64,000 bases of DNA from Patescibacteria group bacterium (GTDB taxonomy: Bacteria > Patescibacteriota > Minisyncoccia > UBA6257 > 2-01-FULL-56-20): the NCBI GenBank assembly GCA_018971305.1, contig JAGXBC010000004.1, positions 4,028 to 68,027 of the forward strand. The letters run 5' to 3'. Numbering within the stretch: the first letter of the stretch is position 1; each line of letters begins with the position of its first letter. The translations under genes were made by a program, and so were the position numbers. Positions 3,862 through 47,112 of the stretch are shown one piece after another. Below the pieces are notes generated by a model. That model made no database searches. It saw nothing but the letters and a program-made list of their open reading frames with translations, and was not told the origin of the DNA.

Positions 3862-5037
3862 TTATAGCGCGTAGGTGCTTGTTATTTTTGCGAACGCATC
3901 CTTGTCTCCCGAATCTATCGGCTTGCCTGCAGGCGGATTAATGGATAACGGATTTATGAGCGTACCGAACTTCCTCACTTCATAATGCAGGTGCGGGCCG
4001 GTAGCAAGTCCTGTGGCGCCAACATAGCCGATTACCTGCCCTTGCTTTACGTGCGCGCCGATCTTGATTCCTTTCGCGAAACTGGAGAAATGCCCGTAGG
4101 TCGTCGTGTATTCTTCGTTATAGCGAATAACAACTTTGTTCCCGTATTCCCCTCTCCAGCCGGCGTCTATCACAGTACCGTCACCGATAGAGACAACAGG
4201 CGTGCCGTAATTCGCGGCAAAATCAACCGCACGATGCGGTTCAACGGCACCGTTCACAGGATCAATCCGCCGGTAGGTGAAATAGGTACTGATGTATTTA
4301 TATTGCAGAGGAAACTTCAAGAATATTTTCTGCACGGAGTTGCCATTCTCGTCGTAATACCCTTCCGTAGTTTTGTCGGACTTAAAATAATAGGCGTAAT
4401 AGGGGTCGCCGCTATTTATAAATTTGGCAGCAAGAATTTTCCCGGGCATCTTGTAAACACCATTCAGGTAGCGGGCTTCGTAAATCATCTCAAATGAATC
4501 CCCTTTCTGAACGCTGAAAGCAAAATCCACCTGCCAGGCAAAAATTTCCGAAAGCAGCACGGCGAGGCGCGGGTCTTTGTTCTCATCAATTAGCGTCTGA
4601 TAAACAGATGAATCAATGGTCCCTTTTATAGTTTCAATTTTAATGTCGTAAGGAATATCCTTAACTGCGGACCGCCAATCGCCGCTATCAGTATTTTGAA
4701 TTTCAAGATTTTGATCGGCGTTGACGTTATAGACTATCCTCTTTACCTCATTAGTTGCGGCATCCGTGAATAATGACAGGACGTGTCCGGCCGTCAGCTT
4801 GGAAGTATCGTAAACATTATCCATAGACGCCACGATAGACGACCTGGTAGTTGTCGTAAGCGACAAATCATTCAAAAGAGCTTCAAAGGAGTAGCCGCTC
4901 GGTATCATTTTGTCTACCTCTCTAAGCGACTCTCTCTTCTCTGGAAGCAGAACTTTGCCTGAGTGACCTCCATGTACAACAATAAGAGCCGCCAAAGCGA
5001 CGGCAACGGCAAACACGGCGAATGTTACCCTGTTCAT
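3862..5037 (-). CDS. M23 family metallopeptidase (LytM-like) with N-terminal membrane anchor.
   Basis: C-terminal GTPVVSIGDGTVIDAGW...GNKVVIRY...TTYGHFSSF...GATGLATGPHLHYEV (HxxxD/HxH M23 motifs). N-terminal TM. Confidence 0.8.
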   Translation of the reverse strand: MNRVTFAVFAVAVALAALIVVHGGHSGKVLLPEKRESLREVDKMIPSGYSFEALLNDLSLTTTTRSSIVASMDNVYDTSKLTAGHVLSLFTDAATNEVKRIVYNVNADQNLEIQNTDSGDWRSAVKDIPYDIKIETIKGTIDSSVYQTLIDENKDPRLAVLLSEIFAWQVDFAFSVQKGDSFEMIYEARYLNGVYKMPGKILAAKFINSGDPYYAYYFKSDKTTEGYYDENGNSVQKIFLKFPLQYKYISTYFTYRRIDPVNGAVEPHRAVDFAANYGTPVVSIGDGTVIDAGWRGEYGNKVVIRYNEEYTTTYGHFSSFAKGIKIGAHVKQGQVIGYVGATGLATGPHLHYEVRKFGTLINPLSINPPAGKPIDSGDKDAFAKITSTYAL

Positions 5038-5069: not shown

Positions 5070-5420
5070 TTAGCAACTCCGCAAACCACTTACCCCAAGA
5101 AATGAGCCAACAATCAGCGGTAGGCCCTTTGCCAAAATAGCTACTATTAAAGCAATAATAGCGTATGTAATAGCGCTGGAGTTGTCTCTTTTACTGGAGG
5201 ACTCACCTGCGGTTAAAATCGCGTACGCTCCTATTATGAAGAGGAGTACAGATATCACTATGAAGAAAGTAAAAATCCAGTTTATCGCAGAACAGATAAG
5301 ACCTATAAATCCCCCGATGGTTGTAACCGGAGGAGGAATATAGGATATCTGAGCGAAAGCCGCTAAAGGAAAAAGTGAGCTGAGAAAAATAGCCGCAGCT
5401 AATTTCAATTTATTTTTCAT
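5070..5420 (-). CDS. Small secreted/membrane protein (signal peptide plus 2 TM). Architecture resembles TrbC/VirB2-type pilins.
   Basis: Signal peptide ending AFAQ, then two hydrophobic helices. 116 aa. No enzymatic motif. Confidence 0.4.
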   Translation of the reverse strand: MKNKLKLAAAIFLSSLFPLAAFAQISYIPPPVTTIGGFIGLICSAINWIFTFFIVISVLLFIIGAYAILTAGESSSKRDNSSAITYAIIALIVAILAKGLPLIVGSFLGVSGLRSC

Positions 5421-6261: not shown

Positions 6262-6292
6262 AAAACCCCCAAATTTTGAGGGTTATTATGTG
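6262..6292 (-). terminator. Putative intrinsic terminator downstream of the major pilin gene.
   Basis: On the minus strand, ccctc-aaaattt-ggggg followed by tttttat. Confidence 0.4.
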
Positions 6293-6313: not shown

Positions 6314-6796
6314 TTAGCGAGTTACGGAGATCGTGCTAGTTGATAACTCTGTGCCAGGAGCGGAAACTGTTATACGACTGCTCGAAGCATCCTGAATAAT
6401 ATTATAGTCCGTATTATATGTAGTACAATTATTCGGATCATCACATTTTACTCCCTGCGATGGATCAATAGGTAGCTCAGACATGTAGGTCGGAACCAAA
6501 CACGGGCGAAGATTAAGCGTTGCCGAAGAAATATCCTGCGCCGGCGTAGACGTAGGAATATTTACTGCAACACCGCCAACCGTGCACTTAAACAATCCTT
6601 GGTTATCCGCCATGTTCTGGCCAATGGCATCCAGTATGGCATTAACGTTACTCTGACGCTGTGAGTTACGCGCCTGCGCGAACTGTCTCGCCGGGTTCAA
6701 AGCCACGAGCACAACTGCCGCCAAAATGGCGATAATGCCTATGACCACGAGAATTTCAATAAGTGTAAAACCTTTGATATTCTTCGTATTTTTCAT
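6314..6796 (-). CDS. Type IV pilin (prepilin-type N-terminal cleavage/methylation domain). Candidate major pilin.
   Basis: KGFTLIEILVVIGIIAILAAV: class III signal with G-1/F+1/E+5. Cys pair near the C-terminus. Confidence 0.8.
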   Translation of the reverse strand: MKNTKNIKGFTLIEILVVIGIIAILAAVVLVALNPARQFAQARNSQRQSNVNAILDAIGQNMADNQGLFKCTVGGVAVNIPTSTPAQDISSATLNLRPCLVPTYMSELPIDPSQGVKCDDPNNCTTYNTDYNIIQDASSSRITVSAPGTELSTSTISVTR

Positions 6797-6899
6797 TATT
6801 TTATTGCTTTTATTAAGATTCTTTTCGACCTTTCGGACTTAGTATTGTATTTATATATCATAAGGAACGATTTGTGGCAACCCCCCGCGATAAAATCTC

Positions 6900-7322
6900 T
6901 TACGTTTGCTTAGGAACTTCGCTCCAGGTGACGATTCCCATATCGGAACTGTCTGCTGTTATAACCAGGTCTGTATATGCCCGCTCGGCGGCGCCTTGGG
7001 GATATTGAGCGCTGACCTTAACGATAATCTGGGTGCTTCCGCTTTTTACTATTGACAAAATATTACAAGAATCTGTTCCCAAATAAATTGTCTCCGGGCC
7101 AACATAGCTACCATCTATCGCTCGCTTTAAAAGGGCGGTGTTAGCACACGCTTCCGCGAGAGAATAACTTTTTTCTTTATACGAAAGATATAAAACATTA
7201 AAACGGGAAAAGAATCCGGTAAAGCTAAGCGACAAAGTAACCGCCAAAAGTAGAACCGCTATAACAAGAGCGGAGGTAACGGCGATAAATCCTTTTTGAT
7301 TTTCTTGCGAACGATTCCTCAT
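6900..7322 (-). CDS. Pilin-like / pseudopilin-like protein (atypical N-terminus).
   Basis: QKGFIAVTSALVIAVLLLAV hydrophobic N-terminus without E+5. Sits inside the pilin gene array. Confidence 0.5.
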   Translation of the reverse strand: MRNRSQENQKGFIAVTSALVIAVLLLAVTLSLSFTGFFSRFNVLYLSYKEKSYSLAEACANTALLKRAIDGSYVGPETIYLGTDSCNILSIVKSGSTQIIVKVSAQYPQGAAERAYTDLVITADSSDMGIVTWSEVPKQT

Positions 7323-7789
7323 CTTAAATATGTGGTGACATCAAAAGATTGCGTTTCGTTCAAGTTTTTTAACGTGAACTGCGCCTCTACGCCGGCGGGC
7401 TTACTTCCGGAGGGAGGAATATTTATAAACGAAAGAGATATTACCTGCACACTTTGACTGTTTAATCTTTCGGCCGGTCCTCCGCCGATTGAAAGGGTTA
7501 ATCCGTCACCGTTTAGGGCAAAAACAAGCGGGCTGGGAGGATTTAACTGCGTTATCGTAAGCGTAGAAGCATTGGGAACGATAGAAATCGCTCCGGTAAG
7601 AGCCCAATTAAGTTTGCGCATTATAAACACGGATTCTTCGTTGATGAAAACTTTGCTCTGGAGATTTCCGCTTCCGCCAACTACGGCATAAGTGGTAAGA
7701 AGCATGCCGCCGACCACCAGCGTAAAAAGGGCGATGTAAATAATTATTTCTATTAAGGTGAAACCACCTGTTTTATTAAGAGGCTTCAT
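7319..7789 (-). CDS. Prepilin-type minor pilin. Track ORF 7319..7861; likely start at Met25.
   Basis: KTGGFTLIEIIIYIALFTLVVGG class III signal. Overlaps neighbours by a few nt (operon). Confidence 0.7.
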   Translation of the reverse strand: MKPLNKTGGFTLIEIIIYIALFTLVVGGMLLTTYAVVGGSGNLQSKVFINEESVFIMRKLNWALTGAISIVPNASTLTITQLNPPSPLVFALNGDGLTLSIGGGPAERLNSQSVQVISLSFINIPPSGSKPAGVEAQFTLKNLNETQSFDVTTYLR

Positions 7790-9560
7790 TGTCATCTTCT
7801 GGGTTATACGATGCTGAATTGTTGGGGTTCCCGTCCGTGTGGCACTGAGGATCTGCAGCATCTATTTTACCATCGCCATCATCGTCAATTTTATCTGCAC
7901 ACTGAGCTGGCCGAATAATACGAAGGCCGTCGTTTTGATTGTTCGAGCTATAAATAAAATTGTCCTCAAGATCAAGGCCTGTTGTGTGATTGGAAAAATT
8001 ATAAGGACCAATCGGCTTTATGGCGGCTGGATTTGAAATGTCCAACGTTAAAAATCCGATATTGGAATCGTCCAGTGAAAGAAACGCATAATTCCCGCTT
8101 ACCCGAGTTCCGGTCACGGTAGAACCAGAAATATTTTTGCTGATACTGGAGCCCAAATTTATTGAACAGGTCGCACAAAGTTCAACCGGAGTAGTTGGGT
8201 TCGAGATATCTAGAATGTAAAAATCTCTCTCGCTCGTGCTATTTACTATCTGCCGCCCAAAATATAATCGATTGCCGACAATAAAAATACTTGTCGCGTC
8301 TTCGTCGTCGCTTGCGCTTCTTTGGGCGTCAAAAGAACCCACAAGCTGTATATTTGCCGGGTTGCCGACATTATAAACCATTATTTCTCCGGAATCGTTT
8401 GACGTTGCTAAATAAGCGTAGTCCCCCCGTACAGCAATAGCATTTACATTATGGTTGACGTTTACGCTACCCATCCAAATCGGATTAGCCGGACTACTCG
8501 TATCACACATAGGAAAGGCGGGCTCTGGCCGTACGCAAAAAACATGAAATTCGTTATTTTTCGTGGACGGCAGCGCCAAGTTCGCAATATATTTAGTTCC
8601 CACATAAACTCTTCCGTCATAATAGAAAACACTCTGTCCGGCCAAACAAGGCTTCGAACAGGTGAACGTAATGTTGGGCAAAGTAGTTGAAGCAATTACC
8701 ATTGGATTCGCTGGATCAGTTGAAACGTCAATCACTTGAAGCTGTTTTTGATTGTCGTTCTGAACTACATAAGCATAAATTTTACCGGTATTATTGTCGC
8801 GAGCAACGTCAACTGAATTGAGCCCTGGTCCAATATTTAAGCTTCCTACGATTGGAGGCATAATTCCGTTGATGATGCCAGTGCCATCCAGTATGAAAAA
8901 ATTATCCTTATTAGACATGGCCGTCATATAAATAGTTTTATTCAGCACGTCCATGTCGGTTGCCGGCGTTCCAGCGGCAGAATTTACCAAGGGGTTGTCA
9001 TTGTACGAAGCCTTGTAGTTAAGATCGCGCGACATAAGCGTATTCGGATTCGTCCAACCTCCACCAGGTGGATTAATTTCACAATCCCCGCCCAGAGCGA
9101 TTGCTCCAGCAACGTCCGTAAAAACAGTGGAAAGGTTAACACCTTGTGGGCGAAGTGAACCGCTGTTCCAGGTTACGCTGCTTGTAACATCCTTCACACA
9201 TTCGGTAATATCCGCAACCTGTAAATTAATGGAATAAAAACTCTGTGCGCTTGATGTTGTAACTAAGGAATTAAAACTTCCCGCCACGGCAACCCTCGCC
9301 GCATCAAGCTGCTCTCTCGCCAGAGTAACAGCCTCGTTATTGGTTTCCGTATCCACCGTATAAGATTGATTGCTGAACGCCACCATAATGGAAGCGGAAA
9401 CTGCAAAAACAAGTACGGCGAGAGCGACGAGCATCTCCAGCGCTGCCTGTCCCGTTAGAAGTCGCGCTCGCGACGTAGTCGCGAGTCCGGAGGACCGCGG
9501 CGCGGCTAATTCTAACGGGACCTGACCCCTTTTATATTTTTTACCAACTGATTTGGCCAT
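7776..9560 (-). CDS. Large pilin-like protein: prepilin-like N-terminus, beta-propeller (LVIVD-type repeats) and a C-terminal TSP3-like Ca-binding loop flanked by Cys. Candidate pilus tip adhesin.
   Basis: TGQAALEMLVALAVLVFAV (G/QAALE with E+5). Repeated YAY/LA..D propeller-blade-like segments. C-terminal CADKIDDDGDGKIDAADPQC. Confidence 0.6.
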   Translation of the reverse strand: MAKSVGKKYKRGQVPLELAAPRSSGLATTSRARLLTGQAALEMLVALAVLVFAVSASIMVAFSNQSYTVDTETNNEAVTLAREQLDAARVAVAGSFNSLVTTSSAQSFYSINLQVADITECVKDVTSSVTWNSGSLRPQGVNLSTVFTDVAGAIALGGDCEINPPGGGWTNPNTLMSRDLNYKASYNDNPLVNSAAGTPATDMDVLNKTIYMTAMSNKDNFFILDGTGIINGIMPPIVGSLNIGPGLNSVDVARDNNTGKIYAYVVQNDNQKQLQVIDVSTDPANPMVIASTTLPNITFTCSKPCLAGQSVFYYDGRVYVGTKYIANLALPSTKNNEFHVFCVRPEPAFPMCDTSSPANPIWMGSVNVNHNVNAIAVRGDYAYLATSNDSGEIMVYNVGNPANIQLVGSFDAQRSASDDEDATSIFIVGNRLYFGRQIVNSTSERDFYILDISNPTTPVELCATCSINLGSSISKNISGSTVTGTRVSGNYAFLSLDDSNIGFLTLDISNPAAIKPIGPYNFSNHTTGLDLEDNFIYSSNNQNDGLRIIRPAQCADKIDDDGDGKIDAADPQCHTDGNPNNSASYNPEDDNEAS

Positions 9561-10011
9561 TGTTGTTTATTGAAATCGTGGAACTGCGAACACCGTCACC
9601 TATCGTAAAAGTTCCGAGATAACTCGTTGAAGCGCTAAGCTGGTTAAAAACAACGTCTTGCGGCAACACCGGATTGCCAGTGATTTTCACGCCGCCGGAA
9701 GGAGTAATTGCTTGATTAAGCGAACCACCCTCCACATAAGGAGTCCCCTGGAAGATAACATATCTGCCGCTTTCAACGTGAACGCCATGCACATCTTCGT
9801 TTATGTTCAGCATAGATTCCATTCTCGCTTTTTGCAGAGCGCTTATAAAAATATTCTTTTCCGAACGGAAAGAATAGCTGCGGTAAAAATCCATGCTTAC
9901 CCAAAGCCCCATACTGGCCAAAATGCCTATAAGGGCAATGACAATGATTATCTCTATGAGGGTAAACCCGGAGCGCTTTGAATTAGGGGTGGATGTACTG
10001 AGTAAGTTCAT
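9541..10011 (-). CDS. Minor pseudopilin (GspH/FimT-like).
   Basis: KRSGFTLIEIIIVIALIGILASM class III signal. Confidence 0.75.
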   Translation of the reverse strand: MNLLSTSTPNSKRSGFTLIEIIIVIALIGILASMGLWVSMDFYRSYSFRSEKNIFISALQKARMESMLNINEDVHGVHVESGRYVIFQGTPYVEGGSLNQAITPSGGVKITGNPVLPQDVVFNQLSASTSYLGTFTIGDGVRSSTISINNNGQISW

Positions 10012-11083
10012 ATATGGGGGTAATAATGGAAACAGCGATAAATCCGACTAGCGCTCCCATCACTATCATTAAAGCCGGCTCTATCGTGTTTGATAAATTT
10101 TTGGTTATCATATCAACCTCGTTCTCATAAAGTTCCGAAACGAAAAGCAGTGTGTCGCTCAGCGTGCCCGTAGTCTCGCCGACCGATACCATCTGCGTCA
10201 TAATCGGCGGGAAAATATTTTGATGCTTTGCGAGGTGTTTGGAGATTACTTCACCCCTCAAAAGATTTTCGGACATTGCCGTTATCTCCCTGCGATACAC
10301 CATATTCTTTACGGTACTCGCTGATATCTTCGTCGCCTCCACAATGGAAATCTGGCTTTTAAGAAGCAGGCCTAAAGTGCGGCAAAAATTGGCCATATAA
10401 TAACTTTGTATCAATCTGCCAAAAATAGGTGTTTTCAAAACCCAGCTGTCAACGAAGGTGCGAAATCCGGGAGTTCTGCGCAAAAAAATAAAAGCGACGA
10501 TAGCGGCGATAAATCCCAACAAGACATAGAAACCGAAGTTTATAAAAAATCCGCTTACGAATATCAATGTCTTGGTCGTAAAGGGAAGGTCAAACTTAAA
10601 ACTCGCAAATATCGGCAAAACTTTAGGGAAAATAAAAACTGTTAGAAGAACGCTGAGAGCAATCGTTGCTGCTACAACTATAACGGGGTAAACCATAGCT
10701 CCAACAACCTTGCGCCTCAATTCCTGCTTCTTTTTAAGCTCCTCGGCAAGATAGTTAAGGTTTGTCTCCAGGGTGCCGCTCATTTCTCCGATTCTTATAA
10801 CGTTCACCGCAAAATCCCCGAAAATATTCCCGAAAGACGCCAAACTGGAAGAAAGAAATTGTCCCCTCTCCACGTCGGATACTATCTTGGAATAAATTTT
10901 CGTCGCCGAAGCGGAACCGGGCTGGTTCTTCAACATACGCAAGCATTCCAATATCGGATTACCGGCTCTGATCAGGATGGAAAGGCGCTTGGCGAACATG
11001 ATCTTTTCCTGGATGGAAAGCCGGGTTAGAAAAGGAAGGTTTTTAAGAAATTTATTCATGAAGCATGCGAAGCACTTCGTCAA
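9983..11083 (-). CDS. pilC: Type IV pilus / T2SS platform protein, GspF/PilC family.
   Basis: Two T2SSF-like repeats with three TM regions. Typical position after pilB. Start may be an internal Met; overlaps the pilB 3' end. Confidence 0.85.
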   Translation of the reverse strand: MTKCFACFMNKFLKNLPFLTRLSIQEKIMFAKRLSILIRAGNPILECLRMLKNQPGSASATKIYSKIVSDVERGQFLSSSLASFGNIFGDFAVNVIRIGEMSGTLETNLNYLAEELKKKQELRRKVVGAMVYPVIVVAATIALSVLLTVFIFPKVLPIFASFKFDLPFTTKTLIFVSGFFINFGFYVLLGFIAAIVAFIFLRRTPGFRTFVDSWVLKTPIFGRLIQSYYMANFCRTLGLLLKSQISIVEATKISASTVKNMVYRREITAMSENLLRGEVISKHLAKHQNIFPPIMTQMVSVGETTGTLSDTLLFVSELYENEVDMITKNLSNTIEPALMIVMGALVGFIAVSIITPIYELTQYIHP

Positions 11084-12269
11084 AGGTGGTTATGCCGGCT
11101 CCGGCTTTTTTAACCGCGTCTTCTATCATCGGAACCATTCCCTGAGCTACGGCGATTTTCTGAATCTCATCGGCAGTTGCTTTGCGTAAAATGGCGTCGC
11201 GGATGGGACCATCTATTACTAAAACTTCCTGAACACCAATGCGCCCCTTATAACCGGTCTTGCCGCAATCGTCACAGCCCTTGCCGACAAAAAACTTTTT
11301 ATGAGCGCTGAGGGCATCTTTAGGAAGAACTTCGGCAAGGCCTTTTTGTTCGGCTTCGGTTACTTTTTTTTCTGTCTTGCAAGATTCGCATATCTTACGC
11401 ACCAATCGTTGGCCAATAGCCACGTTTACCGTTGAAGCTATTAGGTATGATTCTATTTTCATGTCCAGCAACCGAGGCAGGGTTGTGGCGGCGTCATTCG
11501 TATGAATGGTTGAAAGCAAAAGGTGGCCAGTAAGCGCCGTGTTTACGGCAACCCCAGCCGTTTCCGAATCTCTTATCTCGCCCACCATGATTATGTTCGG
11601 ATCTTGACGCAAAATTGAGCGGAGTCCGTTCGCGAAAGTTAAACCCGTGCGCGAGTTCGCCTGTATCTGGTTTATGCCTTTAATAGCATACTCCACCGGG
11701 TCTTCTATGGTAATTATGGAAACGCTTCTTTTGTTCAGAGTTCTGATGAGAGTATAAAGCGTAGTGGTTTTTCCCGAACCGGTCGGGCCCGTCGCAAGTA
11801 TCATACCGTAAGGCTTATGAACGGCATTCGTTATTTTCACGGCGTTCTCTTTGCTAAAGCCGAGCGCTTCCAAACTAAAATCTTCCGCCTGGTCAACGAG
11901 CAATCGCATCACGGAATTTTCTCCGTAAAAAGTAGGGACGACGGAAACGCGCACGTCTATGGCTTTATTATTTTCTTTCAAAAAATATCTGAAGCGGCCA
12001 TCCTGGGCGGACTGGTGCTCGTCGGTGCGCATGTGGGCAATTATTTTTATCCGGGACATAACCTCGGCATACATATCTTTGCCGAAAGAATGGATGTCCT
12101 GCAAAACTCCGTCGATGCGGAAACGTATCTGGATCTTGTCGTCTTCCGGATCCAGATGCACGTCCGAAGCCCGTAAGTGGTAGGCGTCTTCAATAAGACA
12201 ATTTACGAAACTGATTATAGAAATATTAGCTCCTTGTTTGAGCTCTTTTTCGAGATGTGTGGCTATCAT
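11052..12269 (-). CDS. pilB: Type IV pilus assembly ATPase, GspE/PilB family (short form without N-terminal domains).
   Basis: Walker A ILATGPTGSGKTTTLY, Asp box, Walker B and tetracysteine (CESC...CDDC) motifs. Confidence 0.9.
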   Translation of the reverse strand: MIATHLEKELKQGANISIISFVNCLIEDAYHLRASDVHLDPEDDKIQIRFRIDGVLQDIHSFGKDMYAEVMSRIKIIAHMRTDEHQSAQDGRFRYFLKENNKAIDVRVSVVPTFYGENSVMRLLVDQAEDFSLEALGFSKENAVKITNAVHKPYGMILATGPTGSGKTTTLYTLIRTLNKRSVSIITIEDPVEYAIKGINQIQANSRTGLTFANGLRSILRQDPNIIMVGEIRDSETAGVAVNTALTGHLLLSTIHTNDAATTLPRLLDMKIESYLIASTVNVAIGQRLVRKICESCKTEKKVTEAEQKGLAEVLPKDALSAHKKFFVGKGCDDCGKTGYKGRIGVQEVLVIDGPIRDAILRKATADEIQKIAVAQGMVPMIEDAVKKAGAGITTFDEVLRMLHE

Positions 12270-12314
12270 TTATTAGGATGAATCTAAAAATTATACTATA
12301 GCCGGAATAACCGT

Positions 12315-13346
12315 CTACAATATCTTTATCGCGGCAGTCGCTAAATACTGATTGAAAAGAAATACTCCGCCGACAAGAAGAAGGATAAGCAGTCCATTCA
12401 TAATCAGCTGGGCGTGCTGAATACGCACTTTAACGAAAATATTTAGTGCTAAAGCGAGTATGGTGAGTAATCCCACTGCATAAAAAACGTAGTTGGCTGT
12501 TGCCCTCGGAGACGCAACGAGCGCAGCCATGCCGCCGTCTTGAAGCGGAACGATTGGCTCCTCAACCGAATTATTGGCTACACCTGCGACAATCGGAGAA
12601 GATGTAACGGAAGAAGTTTCTTCACCTTTCACGGCGACGAAAGTTTCTGATCCGGAAGTACCCGTGGATGTCGTCTCTGCGGTGACTATCGGTTTTTGCG
12701 GCAACTGTTCAGCCGCGGATGCCGTAGGCACGCCCGGCAAAGACGGCGATGAAACGCGCGCTATAGAGTTGGGCTTGCCGAACATTTCCACGACAAAAGT
12801 TGCCTGATGGCCTTCGTAGATACCTTGGGACGTAGCAATGCCTATTTCAGTAAAATTTCCGTTAAGAATATTTTCTTTATGCGTGGGCGAATTCATCCAG
12901 GCGTTGGTCACATCGCTGGAGTCAACAAAATTAACCGCGAGGTTTTCTCCGGCATAAGCAAAGCGATATCCCACTTGCTGCATCCAATACCAGGGCGTAA
13001 GTCCCTCGGGGCTCGTGTGAGCGAAATATCCTTTGGCTGCCATATCCTGGGCCTTTTCCATGGCCGCGACTTCCAAAAGAGCGTTCGGTCTCAACGGGGA
13101 AAGATCGTATAACTGTCTATTGGCATTAGTTTCGTCCACGAGAACATTGGGAATTACAAAGGCAAAAAATTTGCTGTGCGGCAGAACTACAAACGCCTGT
13201 AAAAGAAAGAGCACCTCAACACCTACAAGAATAGTGGCGAGAAAAAGAACGGACTCATTGCGCAAAAGATGCGGCTGATGGTCGTTTTCCTCCTGCGGAA
13301 TGAAATATTTTGTGAGCCAGTTCTTCATAAGGTTAAAGTATAGCAT
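12315..13346 (-). CDS. CAP (SCP/PR-1-like) domain protein with TM segments at both ends and a Ser/Thr-rich linker.
   Basis: GYFAHTSPEG...NAWMNSPTHKENIL resembles the CAP-domain HNxxR-type signature region. Confidence 0.65.
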   Translation of the reverse strand: MLYFNLMKNWLTKYFIPQEENDHQPHLLRNESVLFLATILVGVEVLFLLQAFVVLPHSKFFAFVIPNVLVDETNANRQLYDLSPLRPNALLEVAAMEKAQDMAAKGYFAHTSPEGLTPWYWMQQVGYRFAYAGENLAVNFVDSSDVTNAWMNSPTHKENILNGNFTEIGIATSQGIYEGHQATFVVEMFGKPNSIARVSSPSLPGVPTASAAEQLPQKPIVTAETTSTGTSGSETFVAVKGEETSSVTSSPIVAGVANNSVEEPIVPLQDGGMAALVASPRATANYVFYAVGLLTILALALNIFVKVRIQHAQLIMNGLLILLLVGGVFLFNQYLATAAIKIL

Positions 13347-13373
13347 AGTAATTATACCACTATATCAATAAAA

Positions 13374-13408
13374 AAGCAAGTCCATTAGAGGGCTTGCTTT
13401 CATTGAGT
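13374..13408 (-). terminator. Intrinsic terminator downstream of the giant surface-protein gene.
   Basis: Minus strand: aagcaag-loop-cttgctt followed by TTTTTTATT. Confidence 0.5.
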
Positions 13409-13573
13409 CTTATGCATTTATAGTTTTACCAAAATGGCGCAGAGCCTGTTTCTGGAGAAGCTTTCGGAGCCCCGACGGGCCTGGTCTCGAAGAGCCGTCG
13501 GGGCGAGAAGCAGCGGGGAATTTTCGCTGGAAAAATTCAACCGCGGTTCTCCAAAACAGTGCACAAGCCACAC

Positions 13574-16500
13574 TTATGGAAGCTGGGGCATCGGGATATC
13601 AAGAGTAGAACATCCGAGAAGATTTACCCATCTCTTTGTCGTCTTATAGACATATCCGGTCGGAGTCTGGGCGTTCGGTAATCCGTAGGCAACCCAAGGA
13701 ACAAGAATATCCGTTGCATATTTCAATTGGAACTGTTTCACTGCTTCTCTCGTCTGCTTTCCGAAGAAACCGGTTATCGGCAAATTAATTCCGAGCTCCT
13801 GATTAAGGAATGCCTGCAGAACTTTTACATCATCAACATTGTTCTTGGCACCATACTTCATATAAGAACCAATTGTGTAACCGCAGGAAGTGCTTGCACC
13901 GAGAACTTCACCGGTAGTGCTCGCTCCTAAAACCGCTCCGCCGCCACCACCTCCGCCAACTAAGCCACCACCGCCACCAGGGTTACCTCCTCCGCCAACT
14001 CCAACCGTACCTCCTCCACCACCTCCGCCACCGCCACCCGTGTTAGTATTGCTGTTCTGGACAGTGAAAGATATGGAGGGTGAATTATTGGAGGAATCAT
14101 CGGTCAGAGAACCAAGCTCACTTCCTGTAGCCGTGTTCGTAATCGTCTGACCCGATGTATTAGACCCAACGACTACCGTAAGGGTCATTGTCGCGGATGT
14201 ACCAGGGCTAAGATCGCCAACGTTCCAATCCAACGTACCACCGTTCACAATACTGCCTTGCGAAGATGTGGCACTGGAAAGAGTAATACCGCTCGGCAAT
14301 AAATCGTGGATAACTATATAGGTTGAGGTCGCGGGACCGAGGGCAGTCGCCGTAATTGTGTAGTGTATAGTATCACCGGCAGCCGGATTGAAATTATCAA
14401 CTGTCTTCTCAACCTTCAAATCGGCAACAGTTCCTCCGCTACCTCCGCCGCTCGTCTGGACACTGGTTCCCGGAGCGGTAGATGAGTTATTTCCCGAATT
14501 AGGGTCATTTACGCCGGAAGATTCCGTAACCGTTGCTGAATTAGTTATAGTGTTTCCTCCCTGGCCGACATTAACCGTAGCCGCAATCGTAAGCGTTGAG
14601 CTAGAACCCGCAGACATATCCCCTATTGTCCAAACGCCAGTTGAAGTGGAATAACTGCCAACCGAAGGCGTAGCGGAAACAAAGGTCAATCCCGCAGGAA
14701 GGACGTCTGTTGCCTCAACCGCCGTTGAAGTAGACGGGCCCAGAGCCGAAACAGTTAGTGTATACGTAAGAGTTCCGCCTTCCGTAGTGCTCGTAGAGTC
14801 AACAGTCTTGTCTATTGAAACATCGGCATCCGGAGTTCCACCTCCGCCGCCTCCACCTCCGCCGCCAGAAAGATCGAACTGGGCATTAACGGTAGTATCT
14901 GAATTCATAATAACGTCGCAAGTGGTGGAAGTGCTGCCGGCGCAGGCACCACCGGACCAGCTTACAAATACGGAGCCCGCATCAGCAACCGCAGTAAGAG
15001 TGGTCGTGGAATTGGTCGGGTAAAATACCGGACCGCAACCAGTACCGCAATTAATAAGCCAGCCGTCGGTAACTGTTCCTGTGCCGGTGCCGGACTTCGT
15101 GACAGTTAAGGTATGAGTGGTGTGAACCGGGGGCACAAGAGTGAATTCGGCGTTCACGGTCATATCCGAATTTAAGGTAACGTCGCAGGTGGTGGAGGTA
15201 CTTCCGGCGCAGGCATCACCGGACCAACCGGTGAATGTTGAACTGGCGTCGGGGGAGGCAGTAAGAGTTGTCACAGACCCGGTTGAGTAAAAAACACTGC
15301 AGGTCGTACCACAGTTTATTAACCAACCGTCGGAGACCGTTCCGGTTCCTGTTCCCGATTTGGTTACGGTAAGGGTATTGGTAGTATGGGTAATCGGATT
15401 AGCGGCAAAAGTTACGGCAATCGTATGATCAGTAATAACTCCGGTAAATGTGTAGCTCGTAGATGTGGCAACAGAAGAACTGTCGACTGTAAGGGTGTCA
15501 ATATGATAACCGCCATTCGGGGTAAATGTGAATGTTTGATCAGAGCCGTCGTTCACGATAACCGTACCAGAAGGAGAAATGGAACCGTTAGCGCTGGAAG
15601 TTGCATTTATCGTATGGGTCAAGACGAACTCTGCGCTCACGGAAAGATTAGATGTCATCGTAAGGTCGCAGGTTGGCGAAGAACCGGCACTAGAGCAGTC
15701 GCCTCCCCAGCCGATAAACGTGGAACCGGTAGCCGCAGTAGCAGTCAAGGTAGTAGTAGTATTGGGCTGATAGAAAACCTCACATCTATTATGGCCATTT
15801 CCGCAGTTCAACCAACCATCGGTGATATTACCGATACCGTTGCCGGTAGTCGTAGCGGTGAGAGAATACGTGATAACTGGAGCCGAATTTACAAATAACG
15901 TATAGGCCCGAGAAGTAGATGTCGCTGTGTCAGATACTCCAACAGTAAAGTTGTAAGTGCCAGCCGTTGTCGGTGTTCCAGAAATCGTAGTCGTAGAACC
16001 GGTTGCAGAGGTATCAAGCGTTAATCCTGCCGGCAACGTTCCCGAAGATAAATTCCAAGCGAACGGGTGTCCGTTGGTTCCTGAAACGGTGATTGTTTGA
16101 GAGTAAGCTGTTCCCGATGTCGCGTTCGGTAAAGACGCAGGAGATATAGAAATGGGTTGAATTGGAATGGTGATATTTGCAGAAAATGTTGAAGCTGCGG
16201 AACCTTCTGCACCATTAAAGTTTGCGTGATAAACTTTCACGCAAATAGCATATGTTCCCGGCGTAGAAAATGGGTGAGAGGTACTCCACGTAGCATTAGT
16301 GAATGTACCATTGTTATGTCCGTCTGGTCCACCACTCCCACCTGTAAATACTATAGAACTAAAATTAAATTGCGTTGAGCTAGATGCGTTACATGCTCCC
16401 GTCCAATCCACACCCATGTGTTGATCACTACTCTGCCCAGTATATGGATTTCCGGTCGCGGTACCAGAAAGGTTAACCGTTAATCCGGTAATGGTATAAG

Positions 16501-16627
16501 AACCAGAGATAGAATAACTACTAGCCGCCATCGCTGTTGGCACAGTAACCGCACCGACGCCAAAAAACATCGCTACTGTAAAAAGCGATATACCAACAAT
16601 TCCGACTTTAATTAATTTATTTTTCAT
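13574..16627 (-). CDS. Giant secreted surface protein (1017 aa). N-terminal putative-Ig domain, three divergent InlB B-repeat-like domains, two DUF11/CARDB-like repeats, poly-Gly tracts, and a C-terminal peptidoglycan-binding (PG_binding_1) domain.
   Basis: Signal peptide. Thrice-repeated GTGTV.DGWLNCG...C...F segments. ATDVLPAGLTFVSAT...TLTIAATV (DUF11-like). C-terminal GAKNNVDDVKVLQAFLNQELG...GFFGKQTREAVKQFQ (PG-binding). The (GGN)n codon runs encode G10-G12 tracts. Confidence 0.75.
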   Translation of the reverse strand: MKNKLIKVGIVGISLFTVAMFFGVGAVTVPTAMAASSYSISGSYTITGLTVNLSGTATGNPYTGQSSDQHMGVDWTGACNASSSTQFNFSSIVFTGGSGGPDGHNNGTFTNATWSTSHPFSTPGTYAICVKVYHANFNGAEGSAASTFSANITIPIQPISISPASLPNATSGTAYSQTITVSGTNGHPFAWNLSSGTLPAGLTLDTSATGSTTTISGTPTTAGTYNFTVGVSDTATSTSRAYTLFVNSAPVITYSLTATTTGNGIGNITDGWLNCGNGHNRCEVFYQPNTTTTLTATAATGSTFIGWGGDCSSAGSSPTCDLTMTSNLSVSAEFVLTHTINATSSANGSISPSGTVIVNDGSDQTFTFTPNGGYHIDTLTVDSSSVATSTSYTFTGVITDHTIAVTFAANPITHTTNTLTVTKSGTGTGTVSDGWLINCGTTCSVFYSTGSVTTLTASPDASSTFTGWSGDACAGSTSTTCDVTLNSDMTVNAEFTLVPPVHTTHTLTVTKSGTGTGTVTDGWLINCGTGCGPVFYPTNSTTTLTAVADAGSVFVSWSGGACAGSTSTTCDVIMNSDTTVNAQFDLSGGGGGGGGGGTPDADVSIDKTVDSTSTTEGGTLTYTLTVSALGPSTSTAVEATDVLPAGLTFVSATPSVGSYSTSTGVWTIGDMSAGSSSTLTIAATVNVGQGGNTITNSATVTESSGVNDPNSGNNSSTAPGTSVQTSGGGSGGTVADLKVEKTVDNFNPAAGDTIHYTITATALGPATSTYIVIHDLLPSGITLSSATSSQGSIVNGGTLDWNVGDLSPGTSATMTLTVVVGSNTSGQTITNTATGSELGSLTDDSSNNSPSISFTVQNSNTNTGGGGGGGGGGTVGVGGGGNPGGGGGLVGGGGGGGAVLGASTTGEVLGASTSCGYTIGSYMKYGAKNNVDDVKVLQAFLNQELGINLPITGFFGKQTREAVKQFQLKYATDILVPWVAYGLPNAQTPTGYVYKTTKRWVNLLGCSTLDIPMPQLP

Positions 16628-16956: not shown

Positions 16957-17673
16957 CTAATTTTTACGGGATGGTTTCAGTTTTCGCCTGGCAAATCCGA
17001 TCACCGGAATAATTCCGGTGCCGAAAAGCATAATGCTCGTCGGTTCGGGAGTAGAAGTTGGCGGGCTGTATGTACCAGCCACATCCCCCGTTGTGCAAGC
17101 ACCTTGGCAATCCGGGTTCCCGATATTGACATGAGCCGACGCATCCCAACCTTTGTCGTTGAGCGCGAGTACGCTCGCGGCATCAGCGAATGATCCGCTG
17201 GTTGGGGTCAGTAATGCCGACCAGGAAGTTACGGAGTTCGTAAAACCATCGAAGGCATCAACTGTGTTATTGAACACACCGAAGCCGTCAACGGTTCCCG
17301 AACCGCCCAGAGAAAAAGCCGTGTGGCTTCCCCCGCCGGTGTAAGTTATGTTACTAATGGTCACCGGAAGCGACGTATTGAAGTCGACTGCCTGGGCACT
17401 GCCAAGCAGATAAATATACCCGTCGCTGGTTAAACTGGTGAAAGTGATTGTTGCGTCACCTCCGCCGCTCGGAACCGATATGGTTACCCCTACGTACGGC
17501 CCGGTTCCGTAACCAGGCACGTTCGTTGCTGTGAGGTCAAAGGTAATGGAATCCGCTCTCGCCTGGATAGCCGCGAATAACAATACGGCAAACATGGTAA
17601 GGGCGAACGCCGCTGTACTACGGTGTTTTTTCTTCATATCTTGCCTTTCCTCCCTTTGATTGGATTTATTCAA
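16957..17673 (-). CDS. PEP-CTERM sorting-domain secreted protein.
   Basis: Signal peptide, then the C-terminal TPEPTSIMLFGTGIIPVIGFARRKL: PEP motif, TM helix and basic cluster. Confidence 0.7.
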   Translation of the reverse strand: MNKSNQREERQDMKKKHRSTAAFALTMFAVLLFAAIQARADSITFDLTATNVPGYGTGPYVGVTISVPSGGGDATITFTSLTSDGYIYLLGSAQAVDFNTSLPVTISNITYTGGGSHTAFSLGGSGTVDGFGVFNNTVDAFDGFTNSVTSWSALLTPTSGSFADAASVLALNDKGWDASAHVNIGNPDCQGACTTGDVAGTYSPPTSTPEPTSIMLFGTGIIPVIGFARRKLKPSRKN

Positions 17674-18233
17674 GATATCAACCTCCTGCGCAGGAACCCG
17701 GCCATCCCTAGAAGGCCGGTGCCGAACAGGGCCAAACTCGCTGGTTCAGGAACTGCTGTGATAGTAGCATCACCGCTTGTTGCAATCCCCCCGGAAGTCA
17801 GTGATATCACAAAAGTCTGGCCAGTCCCGGCGGAATTTCCAAAGTATGTTTGGAAATCACCGGCTGGAAGAGACCAGAAAGTGTTGAAGGATAGGCCCAC
17901 CGTCGACCCGAAAGAACTCGCGTTGAAGCTGTCGATGGTTCCCGAAATAACAGTAGACCCGTCTGTGAGAGATGCAGTTCCAGCAGCGGTATCGAAAACC
18001 AGAAGAAAGTGCTGGTTCAGGAATGCCGCAGGGCCCTGGTCCATAATCATAGTAAGGCCGGTTGTGGAGTAGTTGCTCCCCGAAGTGAGGACGGTACCAC
18101 TGCAATCCGCAGATGAAGCCGGGGCCGTGCAATAAAAGTCAGCCACCGAATCCGCCTTCGCCGCTGGTGCCGCCAGCACGGAAAACACAGGAACTAACAA
18201 AGCCAAAACCAGCGCAATCTTCTTCATATTCAT
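17670..18233 (-). CDS. PEP-CTERM sorting-domain secreted protein.
   Basis: Signal peptide, then the C-terminal AVPEPASLALFGTGLLGMAGFLRRR, a canonical PEP-CTERM. 4-nt overlap with the downstream paralogous-type gene. Confidence 0.75.
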   Translation of the reverse strand: MNMKKIALVLALLVPVFSVLAAPAAKADSVADFYCTAPASSADCSGTVLTSGSNYSTTGLTMIMDQGPAAFLNQHFLLVFDTAAGTASLTDGSTVISGTIDSFNASSFGSTVGLSFNTFWSLPAGDFQTYFGNSAGTGQTFVISLTSGGIATSGDATITAVPEPASLALFGTGLLGMAGFLRRRLIS

Positions 18234-20881: not shown

Positions 20882-21255
20882 TTATCTTTTTTCTCCAGCT
20901 CCAGACAAACCGAATTGATGCAATATCTTTTTCCGCCTTTTTCTTTGGGGCCGTCGTCAAAAACATGGCCCAAATGAGCTCCGCAATTTTTACAGACGAC
21001 TTCCGTGCGGCTCATACCATAGGTTTTATCTTCTTTAAGCTCAACATTCTTCAGGTTTGCCGGCTCGGTGAAACTCGGCCAGCCGGTACCGGAGTCAAAT
21101 TTAGTGTCCGAAGAAAAAAGCTCCGTGCCGCAGATGGCGCATTTATACATTCCTTTAGAATGCTCATTCCAATATTTTCCCGTGAACGCCGGCTCTGTTC
21201 CGCCTTCTCGCGCTACATGGCGCAACTCGGACGAAAGTTCTTCGTCTTTTTTCAT
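20878..21255 (-). CDS. msrB: Peptide-methionine (R)-S-oxide reductase MsrB.
   Basis: GTEPAFTGKYW...YKCAICGTELFSSDTKFDSGTGWPSF...CKNCGAHLGHVFDDGP...RYCINS: SelR signature with both zinc-binding CxxC pairs. Confidence 0.9.
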   Translation of the reverse strand: MKKDEELSSELRHVAREGGTEPAFTGKYWNEHSKGMYKCAICGTELFSSDTKFDSGTGWPSFTEPANLKNVELKEDKTYGMSRTEVVCKNCGAHLGHVFDDGPKEKGGKRYCINSVCLELEKKDK

Positions 21256-21893
21256 TTTTCAGAATTTTTTAAAAGCTCGTGGAACTTTTCTTTAAGTTTA
21301 TCCATTTTGGGATTAATGACAATCTGGCAGTATGGCGCCGAGGTATTGTTCTTATAGTATTGTCTGTGATAATCTTCGGCATCATAAAAGTCACCAAGCG
21401 GTACAATTTCCGTGACTACTTTTGGGCCGGATTTATTAAGTTCTTTGATAAATGCTTCCGCCGATTTTTTCTGTTCATCTGTCGCATAGAAAATCGCCGA
21501 GCGATACTGGGTACCCGTATCCGCTCCCTGGCGGTTTAAAGTCGTGGGGTCATGCGTGGCAAAAAAAACCGTCAGCAAGTCGCTATAGGAAATCTTTTCC
21601 GGGTTGTATTCTATTTTAATCGCCTCAGCATGACCTGTTCTGCCGGTGCAGACTTGTTCGTAGGTTGGATTTTTTGTGGTGCCGCCAGTATATCCGGGCA
21701 TAACGGAAACAACGCCCTTCAGTTCTTCAAAAACCGCTTCTGTGCACCAAAAACAGCCTCCCGCGAAAACAGCTCTTTGAATTTCGTTTTCCATAAAATT
21801 ATTAGCCGAAGGTAAAAGTATAGGCATCCAAACCAGGAGAATCAATAATAATTTCCAGCGTATGCTCGCTTGAACCATCGGAACACACGCCAT
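21252..21893 (-). CDS. msrA: Peptide-methionine (S)-S-oxide reductase MsrA, possibly exported. N-terminal hydrophobic segment; the catalytic domain starts at Met34 (21794). A start at 21893 would overlap the tlpA 3' end by 92 nt.
   Basis: AVFAGGCFWCTEAVFEELKGV...GYTGG...NPTYEQVCTGRTGHAEAIKIEYNP is the MsrA GCFWC signature. Upstream residues MVQASIRWKLLLILLVWMPILLPSA look like a Sec signal. Confidence 0.85.
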   Translation of the reverse strand: MACVPMVQASIRWKLLLILLVWMPILLPSANNFMENEIQRAVFAGGCFWCTEAVFEELKGVVSVMPGYTGGTTKNPTYEQVCTGRTGHAEAIKIEYNPEKISYSDLLTVFFATHDPTTLNRQGADTGTQYRSAIFYATDEQKKSAEAFIKELNKSGPKVVTEIVPLGDFYDAEDYHRQYYKNNTSAPYCQIVINPKMDKLKEKFHELLKNSEK

Positions 21894-23022
21894 TGGGAGA
21901 ACAATTGCCGCGATTATCTATTATATTGTATAACCTACTCTCCTGGATCGTAACTTTTCCGTTGTGAACATCGCTTCCCGCCGCGGCGGCAGAAACCGGT
22001 TGGCCGTCTTGAAAAATTTCTATCGTTGCACCTTTCGGAGCGTCGGCGACAAAATATACCCTGGCTGCGTTGTACTTATATATGATTTTGGTTCCAACTG
22101 CATTGTTAGTCGCATACTCATTCTGGAAATTCCAGCTGCCGGTAAGATACAAACTATTAAGACTTATATTTTGCGGCACCTGCAGATTCTGGCTGCCCGC
22201 AGTTCCCTGAACCCCGTTCGCGAGATACTGATTTCGGGCCGCGCCAAAATAAGTTTCGGGACTTAAAAATCCACCGGAGATATTGCTCTGCGGCACGGAA
22301 ACAGTTGATGTCAGCATCTCTCCTTGCGCAACGCCAAGAACCCTGCTCCGTTCAGCAAGTAATTTCTGTATCTCGGTCTCTGTTTCGCCGTAATTCCCTT
22401 CTCCTATCTGGTCGTGCACGATATAACCGGCAAGATCAATAAGATATTCGTGCGGCCAATATTGGTTGGAGTAAGCAGTCCAAGTTCCGTAGTCGCTGTC
22501 TAAAACAACCGGGTATTTAATTCCAAATTTCTCCGTCGCCGCTTTCACGTTGTCGTACCTTTTTTCAAAATCAAATTCCGGAGTATGAATTCCGACTATT
22601 TCCAATCCCTCGTCGCGATACCTTTGATACCAAGAATTAAGGTACGGAAGCGTGCGGATGCAGTTGATACAGCTATATGTCCAAAAGTCCAAAAGAATAA
22701 TTTTTTTGCCGATGAGGTTTTTTAGCAGGAACGAAGAACTGGCGTTTATAAAATCTGTCGGATTAGAGATCTCTATTGCCGGCTGATATCCAGCTTTTTT
22801 ATCTGCGGCGGCAATGTCAGAGATGTTCAGGCTGGGTTTTACCGCTGAATTTTTGCCGGAAGAGGCCAACACGTCAATAGAAGATGTAGCCGCATCTATG
22901 TTTAGCGCCTGAGAAGGATTGCTGTTATCGGTGGCACCAGGACGAGCCTTCGTACTTTCAATGTACCAAATGGAAACGATGATTAAGACCACAACGATTA
23001 TTAACGCTAAATTCTTTTTCAT
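21802..23022 (-). CDS. Membrane-anchored thioredoxin-like thiol-disulfide oxidoreductase (TlpA/ResA-like redoxin) with a C-terminal extension domain.
   Basis: N-terminal TM. Redoxin fold with LLDFWTYSCINCIRTLP (CxxC). Lies between ccdA and msrA. Confidence 0.75.
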   Translation of the reverse strand: MKKNLALIIVVVLIIVSIWYIESTKARPGATDNSNPSQALNIDAATSSIDVLASSGKNSAVKPSLNISDIAAADKKAGYQPAIEISNPTDFINASSSFLLKNLIGKKIILLDFWTYSCINCIRTLPYLNSWYQRYRDEGLEIVGIHTPEFDFEKRYDNVKAATEKFGIKYPVVLDSDYGTWTAYSNQYWPHEYLIDLAGYIVHDQIGEGNYGETETEIQKLLAERSRVLGVAQGEMLTSTVSVPQSNISGGFLSPETYFGAARNQYLANGVQGTAGSQNLQVPQNISLNSLYLTGSWNFQNEYATNNAVGTKIIYKYNAARVYFVADAPKGATIEIFQDGQPVSAAAAGSDVHNGKVTIQESRLYNIIDNRGNCSPNGVCSDGSSEHTLEIIIDSPGLDAYTFTFG

Positions 23023-23024
23023 TT

Positions 23025-46037: not shown

Positions 46038-46074
46038 AAATCACCTCACAGAATTTAAATACTAACCTGACGAT

Positions 46075-46103
46075 ATTATACTCTCTGTTTATAAATATGT
46101 CAA
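46075..46103 (-). promoter_or_regulatory. Consensus sigma70 promoter (TTGACA-17-TATAAT) inside a repeated element with GC hairpins.
   Basis: Minus strand: cctgcctcaggcag hairpin, cccgccccgggcggg hairpin, ggattttgattgaca-tatttataaacagagag-tataat. Confidence 0.55.
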
Positions 46104-47105: not shown

Positions 47106-47112
47106 AAGTTTC

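Follow-up and report, generated by a model that had tools for sequence, protein, structure and literature searches.

A seven-gene type IV pilus operon of a Patescibacteria bacterium with a minor pilin fused to a predicted LVIVD beta-propeller

By what means do Patescibacteria find and hold their hosts? Most members of the group outside the Saccharibacteria are uncultured. The question is raised by a cluster of seven consecutive open reading frames (ORFs) that occupies the minus strand from 12269 to 6314 in a 64,000-nucleotide (nt) stretch (hereafter the window) of contig JAGXBC010000004.1, part of a metagenome-assembled genome (MAG) of an ultrasmall Patescibacteria group bacterium. An earlier note, written from the DNA letters alone, had described this cluster as a minimal type IV pilus module of a bacterium like those of the candidate phyla radiation, and the description stands: the source is a Patescibacteria MAG, and the cluster consists of an ATPase, a platform protein and five pilins. 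We conclude that the region is a genuine seven-gene type IV pilus operon of a Patescibacteria bacterium. We further think it rather probable that a Paceibacteria/Parcubacteria-type bacterium here encodes, in one self-contained operon, a minimal type IV filament, the tip complex of which displays a covalently grafted propeller adhesin.

The order of the seven minus-strand genes and their coordinates, as first proposed, were borne out by the ORF list of the window and by Pfam matches. All coordinates below refer to the minus strand of the window unless stated otherwise. The first two genes encode a PilB/GspE-type assembly ATPase (pilB, 11052-12269, 405 amino acids (aa); T2SSE, E 1.9e-118) and a PilC/GspF-type platform (pilC, 9983-11083, 366 aa when read from a TTG at 11083, with an alternative ATG at 11059; T2SSF in two stretches, E 2.4e-49). 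They are followed by an H-type minor pilin (9541-10011, 156 aa; N_methyl, E 3.3e-8) and by a bimodular minor pilin of 594 aa (7776-9560), which comprises a class III signal, a pilin module, an LVIVD propeller and an acidic, Cys-bounded tail. Next come an I-type minor pilin (7319-7795, 158 aa; N_methyl, E 2.4e-5), whose longest ORF is 7319-7861 with a likely start at 7795, a candidate cap pilin of the K/PilA type (6900-7322, 140 aa; no family match), and the candidate major pilin (6314-6796, 160 aa; N_methyl, E 5.5e-8). The first six genes overlap by 4-32 nt, and a 103-nt AT-rich spacer separates the major pilin from the genes upstream of it. A sigma-70-like promoter candidate, TAGACG-16-TATAAT, lies directly 5' of pilB (12290-12317; 10/12 consensus matches), and an intrinsic-terminator-like hairpin with a 9-bp stem followed by a T-run lies about 30 nt past the major pilin stop codon (6264-6284). 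Both calls are consensus matches and no proof of function, and promoter-like sites are not enriched in the region. Because six genes overlap and such sites occur at its two ends, the cluster reads as a single transcription unit.

Comparison with related genomes, a check that the earlier note had proposed, revealed extensive conservation of this arrangement. Our set of 58 loci consisted of four Pfam-annotated contigs and 54 loci from a scan of species-representative genomes with a 13-sequence alignment as query; gene order was scored by phmmer with the seven window proteins. The complete order PilB-PilC-H-giant-I-K-major was found in 32/58 loci, and the remaining loci were all same-order subsets, many at contig ends. 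The same seven genes stand in the same order on contigs with homologues of 47%, 34% and 28% identity. On the contig with 27% identity (L005, 9646 onward), the cassette stops after the propeller pilin and runs into tuf and a ribosomal protein operon, and the downstream pilins of this genome are either missing or encoded elsewhere. Across related loci the major pilin is the best conserved of the five pilins (E 1e-27 to 1e-51). The records of 52 of the 54 scanned loci are titled as unclassified "bacterium" MAGs or as Patescibacteria-group lineages (Taylor-, Lloyd-, Brenner-, Lipton-, Wolfe-, Zambryski-, Jorgensen-, Giovannoni-, Terry- and Colwellbacteria, as well as Paceibacteria, Parcubacteria, Minisyncoccia and "uncultured Saccharibacteria"); the two exceptions, L018 and L059, are titled uncultured Gammaproteobacteria.

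The 594-aa pilin is central to our reading. An identical protein is annotated as hypothetical in NCBI (KGJ89_02815, "Patescibacteria group bacterium" MAG); this annotation, together with hundreds of full-length homologues, led us to reject the reading of the ORF as accidental or as an artefact of frame. Upstream of the cleavage motif, the sole in-frame start is the ATG at 9560. The leader (9450-9560) is 37 residues long and ends in Gly37, which is followed by QAALE(+5)MLVALAVLVFAV; the signal G37/QAALE42MLVALAVLVFAV (the slash marking the cleavage site) thus has the Gly-1 and Glu5 of class III prepilins. This pilin-like N terminus, the conservation of which the earlier note had made a test of its reading, is indeed kept in homologues: in an 80-sequence alignment of full-length homologues, Gly-1 is conserved in 97% and Glu5 (E42) in 100%. 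The pattern G-x4-E-[ILMV]2 is matched by 72/80, and at least five of the eight non-matching sequences start inside or just ahead of the motif and look N-terminally truncated. Among the orthologues in the related loci, 50/56 contain G-x4-E and six lack a match. The +1 residue varies among the 80 homologues (F 28, S 12, A 9, I 7, Q 6, others), and leaders are mostly 2-30 residues, up to 42 among those listed. A weak match to PilV (E 0.014) was also recorded for the window protein.

We modelled the 594-aa pilin with AlphaFold2 on the 80-sequence alignment (predicted local distance difference test (pLDDT) 88.2, predicted template-modelling (TM) score 0.85). The pilin module (residues 38-165, 9066-9449) has the lollipop shape of pilins: a helix alpha-1 of 57 residues (38-94) is topped by a head of four antiparallel strands at 102-106, 109-117, 122-132 and 138-148 (head 102-148, pLDDT 87-98). 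C121 and the C160 of a GGDC160 motif are conserved and placed to form a disulfide in the model; conservation among the 80 homologues reaches 99% for C160 and 97% for W131. Is the fusion to a propeller peculiar to this protein? A profile of the pilin module only (150 positions), searched against 1.84 billion cluster representatives, retrieved 786 representatives at E<=1e-10 and 220 at E<=1e-30. The best matches are mostly long (126 of the best 150 measure 440-850 aa) and the six short matches that we inspected are fragments that end inside blade 1, so that fusion to a propeller is the normal state of this pilin module. In some relatives (P0159, P0255) immunoglobulin (Ig)-like repeats follow the propeller. 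The window protein contains ten cysteines, which we read as five neighbouring pairs. As a side observation, the window also holds two thiol-disulfide gene clusters, at 21252-23744 and 57508-60688, which include MsrA, a thioredoxin/AhpC-like protein, DsbD-type membrane proteins (23025-23744 and 59951-60688), a DsbA-like protein (57508-58266) and a thioredoxin (58810-59364). These clusters fit extracytoplasmic disulfide formation, which the conserved pilin cysteines would need.

The remainder of the protein had been read, from its repeats, as propeller blades fused to the prepilin-like segment, and this reading was supported. LVIVD (PF08309) matches three stretches with 55.2 bits against a gathering cut-off of 20.2 (E 4.2e-15). 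The fold itself had been set beforehand as a feature on which the claim would stand or fall; in the model, 27 long strands between residues 172 and 551 (pLDDT mostly >90) were grouped by us into seven four-strand blades, matching the seven LVIVD-like repeats that we counted in the sequence. This propeller domain spans residues ~166-553 (7902-9065). The tail, 552-594, is of low confidence. When the model was compared with PDB structures by Foldseek, the best matches were seven-bladed WD40-type propellers (NUP43, G-beta, COP1; target-normalised TM 0.66-0.71). A PDB profile search with the family alignment gave marginal matches only, the best being LST8 (E 0.0047), with the geopilin N terminus at E 0.06. 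Of the two families that the earlier note had suggested searching for, LVIVD was thus found and PilY1 was not: PilY1 gave no Pfam match at E<=0.1, no chain at E<=1 in the PDB profile search and no entry in the Foldseek top 50. RCC1 likewise had no Pfam match at E<=0.1 on this protein.

What might such a propeller do? Since many hydrolases and lyases are beta-propellers, it could be an enzyme, for example one that modifies glycans or cell walls and is delivered by the pilus to open the host surface for nutrient uptake. Paraoxonase and haloalkylphosphorus hydrolase are indeed among the weaker structure and profile matches of the 594-aa pilin, and genes for proteins that act on or bind the cell wall lie nearby (an M23 peptidase at 3862-5037; PG_binding domains). 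We nevertheless regard an enzyme as improbable. The top structural matches are non-enzymatic WD40-type scaffolds, and no enzyme family was matched in Pfam or NCBIfam. The conserved propeller residues that we identified, the polar ones included, mostly recur at equivalent repeat positions and so look structural; an active-site signature was looked for among them and none was identified, nor was any unique catalytic constellation seen. The blade loops carry indels. Conservation at structural positions combined with such loops would fit a diversifying binding surface, in keeping with a propeller that serves as a binding head.

The protein was also said to end in a calcium-binding repeat of thrombospondin type 3 (TSP3). 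The motif is present, at residues 554-573 (CADKIDDDGDGKIDAADPQC; 7842-7901), but it is not the end: 21 further residues follow it (HTDGNPNNSASYNPEDDNEAS), and the acidic tail runs to the stop codon at 7776-7778. The TSP3-like label is apt for the DxDxDGxxDxxD pattern, to which D559, D561, D563, G564, D567 and D570 conform (layout C554-ADKID559-D-D561-G-D563-G564-KI-D567-AA-D570-PQ-C573), but not at the level of the family, as neither Pfam TSP_3 (PF02412) nor dockerin matched at E<=0.1; the loop is a single copy with no tandem array. It fits the spacing of a 12-residue EF-hand as well (positions 1, 3, 5, 6 = Gly, 8 = Ile, 9, 12). The nearest model, NCBIfam NF033662 (acidic double-disulfide repeat; residues 552-577, E 7.5e-8), falls short of its 41-bit cut-off at 32 bits; the loop here has just two flanking Cys. 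The loop has a pLDDT of 55-63 in the model, and its pattern occurs once in all six frames of the window. A pattern search over the homologue sequences found it in the window protein and twelve others; among the related loci, 1/48 complete orthologues carries it. The loop is therefore a clade-specific accessory of the closest relatives only. The same module of about 40 residues, CxDxxD[ND]DxDGxxDxxDPxCHxD...NNPxSY, is found in unrelated large ORFs beside related cassettes (L006, minus strand, 11634-13826; L014, 3-3122, two copies; L050, 10601-14791). It thus looks like a mobile, shuffled accessory module of patescibacterial surface proteins and not a family-defining part, and, judged by its residue pattern, would be expected to bind calcium.

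Which subunit, then, would occupy the very tip? The claim that all pilins of the cluster have G/FxxxE signals holds for four of them in respect of Glu5, namely the 594-aa pilin, the H-type pilin (G/FTLIE), the I-type pilin (MTMKPLNKTGG/FTLIE) and the major pilin (MKNTKNIKG/FTLIE); it fails for the 140-aa pilin, which reads G/FIAVT, lacks Glu5 and has no N_methyl match. Glu5 is missing in 9/9 aligned orthologues of the latter, and none of the 49 locus orthologues with a recognisable signal (of 52) has Glu at +5, the residue being I, T, M, V, F or R. Two cysteines (59 and 86) are invariant. AlphaFold2 predicts a lollipop with a helix at 5-69 and five strands (pLDDT 78 on a shallow alignment of six sequences). 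The Foldseek neighbours of this model, of which the top one is the S. sanguinis PilA minor pilin (E 0.22, probability 0.92) and the other best ones in the PDB are Xcp pseudopilins, are non-significant (E 0.2-0.5). Absence of Glu5 is known to mark Streptococcus sanguinis PilA and the K subunit that caps HIJK complexes (PMC9934059). Because it is absent in all orthologues with a recognisable signal, the 140-aa pilin is our candidate for a capping subunit of the K/PilA type, and it, not the 594-aa pilin, is likely the first (topmost) subunit. In three related loci the ORF at the K position is very large, ~675 to >1300 aa as against ~140 (L044, 3924-7871, 1315 aa; L049, 8824-11781; L052, 9111-11138), and the cap subunit, too, may have acquired large modules in some lineages.

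Together with the 594-aa pilin, the H- and I-type pilins complete a set of four pilin-like genes between pilC and the major pilin, one of them without Glu5, which is the composition of an HIJK-type gene set. The H-type pilin scores 19 bits against a cut-off of 21 for Pfam GspH (E 0.002) and 33.7 against 80 for TIGR01708 (E 3e-8), and its orthologues sit at the same position in related loci; the I-type pilin has a weak GspI match (E 0.026). A search of the window with a class III signal pattern recovered 4/5 cassette pilins and no other convincing candidate; it was a loose check, in which the I-type pilin (7319-7795) was missed.

We then considered the machinery that would assemble these pilins. 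The N-terminal domains of canonical PilB/GspE are absent from the ATPase, which aligns with the NCBIfam models only over their C-terminal two-thirds (positions 104-485 of GspE and 176-562 of PilB). It has a Walker A motif, GPTGSGKT, at residue 161 and a tetracysteine motif, CESC at 294-297 and CDDC at 332-335; two such CxxC pairs are typical of assembly, not retraction, ATPases. Its scores lie under every NCBIfam equivalog cut-off, the best being GspE at 484 bits, and the platform reaches 282 bits for GspF against a cut-off of 424. Our Pfam scans of the window covered nearly all long ORFs, including every minus-strand ORF of at least 160 aa, and left eight ORFs without any match; the scans did not extend to most ORFs of the plus strand or to three short ones (121-145 aa) on the minus strand. 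In these scans no family match was obtained for PilD (Peptidase_A24), PilT, PilM, PilN, PilO or the secretin PilQ, in agreement with the claim that no pilM/N/O/Q or pilT gene lies adjacent, nor for GspL, GspM, GspC, ComEA, ComEC or DprA. PilM/N/O and PilT were likewise not found in the four Pfam-annotated related loci, and in 0/58 loci did a second ORF of the T2SSE family, as expected of a PilT paralogue, occur on either strand within 7 kb of the propeller-pilin gene.

The GspE and GspF scores, the GspH-like pilin and the HIJK-like set, which is common to type II secretion systems, raise the possibility that the operon encodes a piston-like pseudopilus by which proteins are exported through the patescibacterial envelope. 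This appears very improbable to us, as all Gsp scores fall below the equivalog cut-offs and the secretin, GspL, GspM and GspC are missing from the window scans; a 45-kDa propeller on a pseudopilin suits display, not a piston, and we know of no precedent for a propeller-fused pseudopilin in type II secretion.

With the gene content and order, the signal motifs, the folds and the conservation of the cassette established as above, a filament with a propeller at its tip may be pictured as follows. The short PilB-like ATPase and the PilC platform would polymerise the 160-aa major pilin, and the four minor pilins (H-like, 594-aa bimodular, I-like and Glu5-less K/PilA-like) would prime assembly. The Glu5-less subunit would go in first and cap the filament; the bimodular pilin would insert beside the cap via its ordinary pilin module, which would place the propeller at the pilus tip. 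There the propeller would act as a ligand-binding head, most likely for a host-cell surface glycan or protein, and the disulfide-closed DxDxDG loop present in this clade would probably bind calcium and stabilise or tune the head. The prepilin peptidase and any retraction ATPase would have to be encoded elsewhere in the genome. Tip location, assembly order, adhesin function, calcium binding and ligand are what we infer. By analogy with PilX2, a proposed tip adhesin, and PilY1, which is held at the tip (both discussed below), the propeller of the 594-aa pilin most likely serves as a binding head displayed at the tip and directed at a ligand on the host surface. A bolder version can be offered only tentatively. 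It would make the cassette a distinct, self-sufficient type IV filament subtype specific to Paceibacteria-type Patescibacteria, with an ATPase without N-domain, no PilMNO and a minor pilin that has taken on, by covalent fusion, a tip-adhesin role like that of PilY1; these episymbionts would rely on the cassette as their main means of capturing a host, and propeller loops and add-on modules (the calcium loop, Ig-like repeats) would set their host range.

Several observations weigh against a propeller adhesin at the tip of a pilus assembled by this operon. As PilD was not detected in the 64-kb window, prepilin processing is assumed. The 594-aa pilin has no match to PF07963 or TIGR02532 (N_methyl) at E<=0.1, probably because its +1 residue is Q, not F or M, and its helix is divergent; these models do match three neighbouring pilins. 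The labels H, I and K rest on weak or sub-threshold matches and gene position, K being without a match. No ligand-binding site was identified in the propeller, and to our knowledge LVIVD domains have no established function. Finally, the composition, with a single ATPase that lacks N-terminal domains, a platform, a major pilin and four minor ones, is equally that of the comG operon of Firmicutes, which has seven genes of these kinds, no PilMNO or PilT, and a prepilin peptidase encoded elsewhere.

This last point bears directly on the role of the cassette, for which the earlier note had named host attachment or DNA uptake and which we, too, can only infer. Under the second alternative, the main rival to our reading, the operon would build a Com-like competence pseudopilus, a short filament that captures extracellular DNA for an organism unable to make nucleotides, with the propeller pilin as DNA receptor or structural cap. 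The absence of PilMNO and PilT from the window scans and of a second T2SSE-family ATPase near the propeller-pilin gene would suit such a device, and ComGA is among the NCBIfam matches of the ATPase; three cassette pilins show weak matches to ComGE. However, ComGA (258 bits against a cut-off of 300) and ComGB (135 against 240) both miss their cut-offs and are outscored by GspE/PilB and GspF. The genes are not arranged as in comG, where the major pilin comes first, the window scans contain no ComEA, ComEC or DprA family, and we know of no Com minor pilin with a propeller. DNA-binding modular minor pilins do exist, ComZ being the cited case (PMC8179133), but in the one case in this phylum where a pilin with a propeller has been studied by experiment, it is host binding that is affected (PMC11623550). 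We consequently judge DNA uptake to be unlikely and retain the tip-displayed adhesin as the preferred reading.

The surroundings of the operon were surveyed as well; all genes named here are on the minus strand. The gene adjoining pilB upstream, 12315-13346, encodes a CAP/YkwD-family domain (E 7e-17; TIGR02909, E 1e-29), and its translation, read by eye, shows a linker rich in Ser and Thr and a hydrophobic segment at each terminus; none of the four Pfam-annotated related cassettes is flanked by this gene. Two genes upstream of the operon, 13574-16627 encodes a predicted surface protein of 1017 aa, possibly a further adhesin or wall-anchored protein, with two DUF11 domains, four InlB B-repeat-like domains, a He_PIG Ig domain, a C-terminal peptidoglycan-binding domain and long poly-Gly tracts. 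Further predicted surface proteins are encoded at 24945-26381 (three fibronectin type III domains plus peptidoglycan-binding) and 27784-28860 (vWA domain). Two small adjacent proteins (16957-17673 and 17670-18233) carry C-terminal PEP-CTERM matches (30.2 and 20.6 bits; cut-off 20.7). PEP-CTERM is usually tied to exosortase systems of diderm bacteria, and no exosortase was seen in the window scans. Beside the M23 peptidase gene, 5070-5420 encodes a 116-aa membrane protein weakly like VirB2/TrbC-like type IV secretion pilins (PF18895, E 0.006; Mbov_0395 family pilin-like conjugal transfer protein, E 0.03). Over the whole window (1-64000), the minus strand holds nearly all long ORFs with family matches, and 29/32 2-kb blocks have a negative GC skew; the window appears to lie on one replichore with a strong gene-strand bias. 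GC content dips to 0.387 at 46001-48000, as against ~0.45, where ORF 47113-47910 encodes an Mrr-type restriction endonuclease with a topoisomerase-type zinc ribbon; this segment is possibly a small acquired island.

How does this cassette relate to what is known? It is compact, readily recognised and widespread in Paceibacteria, and the propeller pilin is a concrete candidate for host recognition in these bacteria. The cassette could serve as a marker in comparative genomics, and its soluble domain (residues ~166-553) could be expressed for glycan or host-cell screening. In the searchable literature we found neither this conserved set of seven genes described for Paceibacteria nor its partner without Glu5, and papers on Parcubacteria or Minisyncoccus yielded only generic mentions of type IV pili genes. 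The propeller-pilin design is already known in outline and is uncharacterised in this lineage; the current understanding of type IV filaments is not overturned. Pilins with IPR013211, which is LVIVD (PMC10210494), have been catalogued mainly in candidate-phyla bacteria, their function stated as unknown (PMC8179133 Dataset S1, Raynaud et al. 2021). In that dataset the entries with 1, 2 and 5 repeats comprise 8, 8 and 7 proteins, and an 860-aa Falkowbacteria protein has 12 repeats; the domain architecture is the same as in the 594-aa pilin (PMC8179133). Most of the family escapes such catalogues of modular pilins, which rely on InterPro prepilin motifs, because an N_methyl match is mostly lacking (a precomputed PF07963 match is present in 2/120 homologues listed).

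Among the closest known proteins, by published description, is PilX2 of Nanosynbacter lyticus TM7x, a minor pilin with a heptabladed propeller in the thin T4P-2 pili of Saccharibacteria (PMC11623550). In TM7x, the only genetically tested patescibacterium, deletion of PilX2 lowered host binding from 10.6% to 4.6%, about the same as deletion of the major pilin; PilX2 belongs to a cluster of five pilins, is the largest of the set and has been proposed as a tip adhesin (PMC11623550). The 594-aa protein is, like PilX2, a propeller-bearing minor pilin in a five-pilin cluster. The two differ in that the PilX2 propeller is described with RCC1 repeats, not LVIVD, and that PilX2 is reported without a predicted PilD signal whereas the family described here keeps Gly-1 and Glu5. 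The pilin locus of TM7x, moreover, is apart from its PilB2/PilC2/PilMNO locus, whereas here ATPase, platform and pilins share one operon without PilMNO.

With GspH-I-J-K and PilHIJK the cassette shares four minor pilins in the operon, a Glu5-less capping candidate and one member that matches GspH models. In contrast to those systems, the bulky subunit and the one without Glu5 are different proteins, the genes run H-giant-I-K, the identity of I and J is positional only, and K is small (140 aa), though very large in the three loci mentioned above. Streptococcus sanguinis has the full machinery with PilMNO and PilT, neither of which is near the cassette. The likeness to its PilA-PilB-PilC set lies in a monoderm-type pilus encoded in one operon (PMC8179133, PMC9934059). 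There, the small Glu5-less PilA nucleates and caps the filament, and the bulky adhesive modules of the Glu5-bearing bimodular pilins fit only at the tip; more generally, tip complexes are capped by a K/PilA subunit without Glu5, and it is at the tip that modular pilins present their adhesive modules (PMC9934059, PMC8179133). The modules of S. sanguinis are vWA and lectin, not a propeller, and its minor pilins number three as against four here.

The comparison with PilC/PilY1 is of another kind. This is a propeller tip adhesin, calcium dependent and encoded among minor pilin genes, to which no sequence relation of the 594-aa pilin was detected. The calcium site of PilY1 lies within its propeller domain, whereas the DxDxDG loop of the 594-aa pilin forms a module of its own at the C terminus. 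PilY1 is no pilin: in type IVa pili it docks non-covalently on PilK at the tip via a 12-residue C-terminal plug (bioRxiv 10.64898/2026.09.18.752573). In the cassette described here the propeller is covalently fused to a Glu5-bearing pilin, and the 594-aa protein is thus a natural counterpart of the PilK-PilY1 plug, solved by gene fusion.

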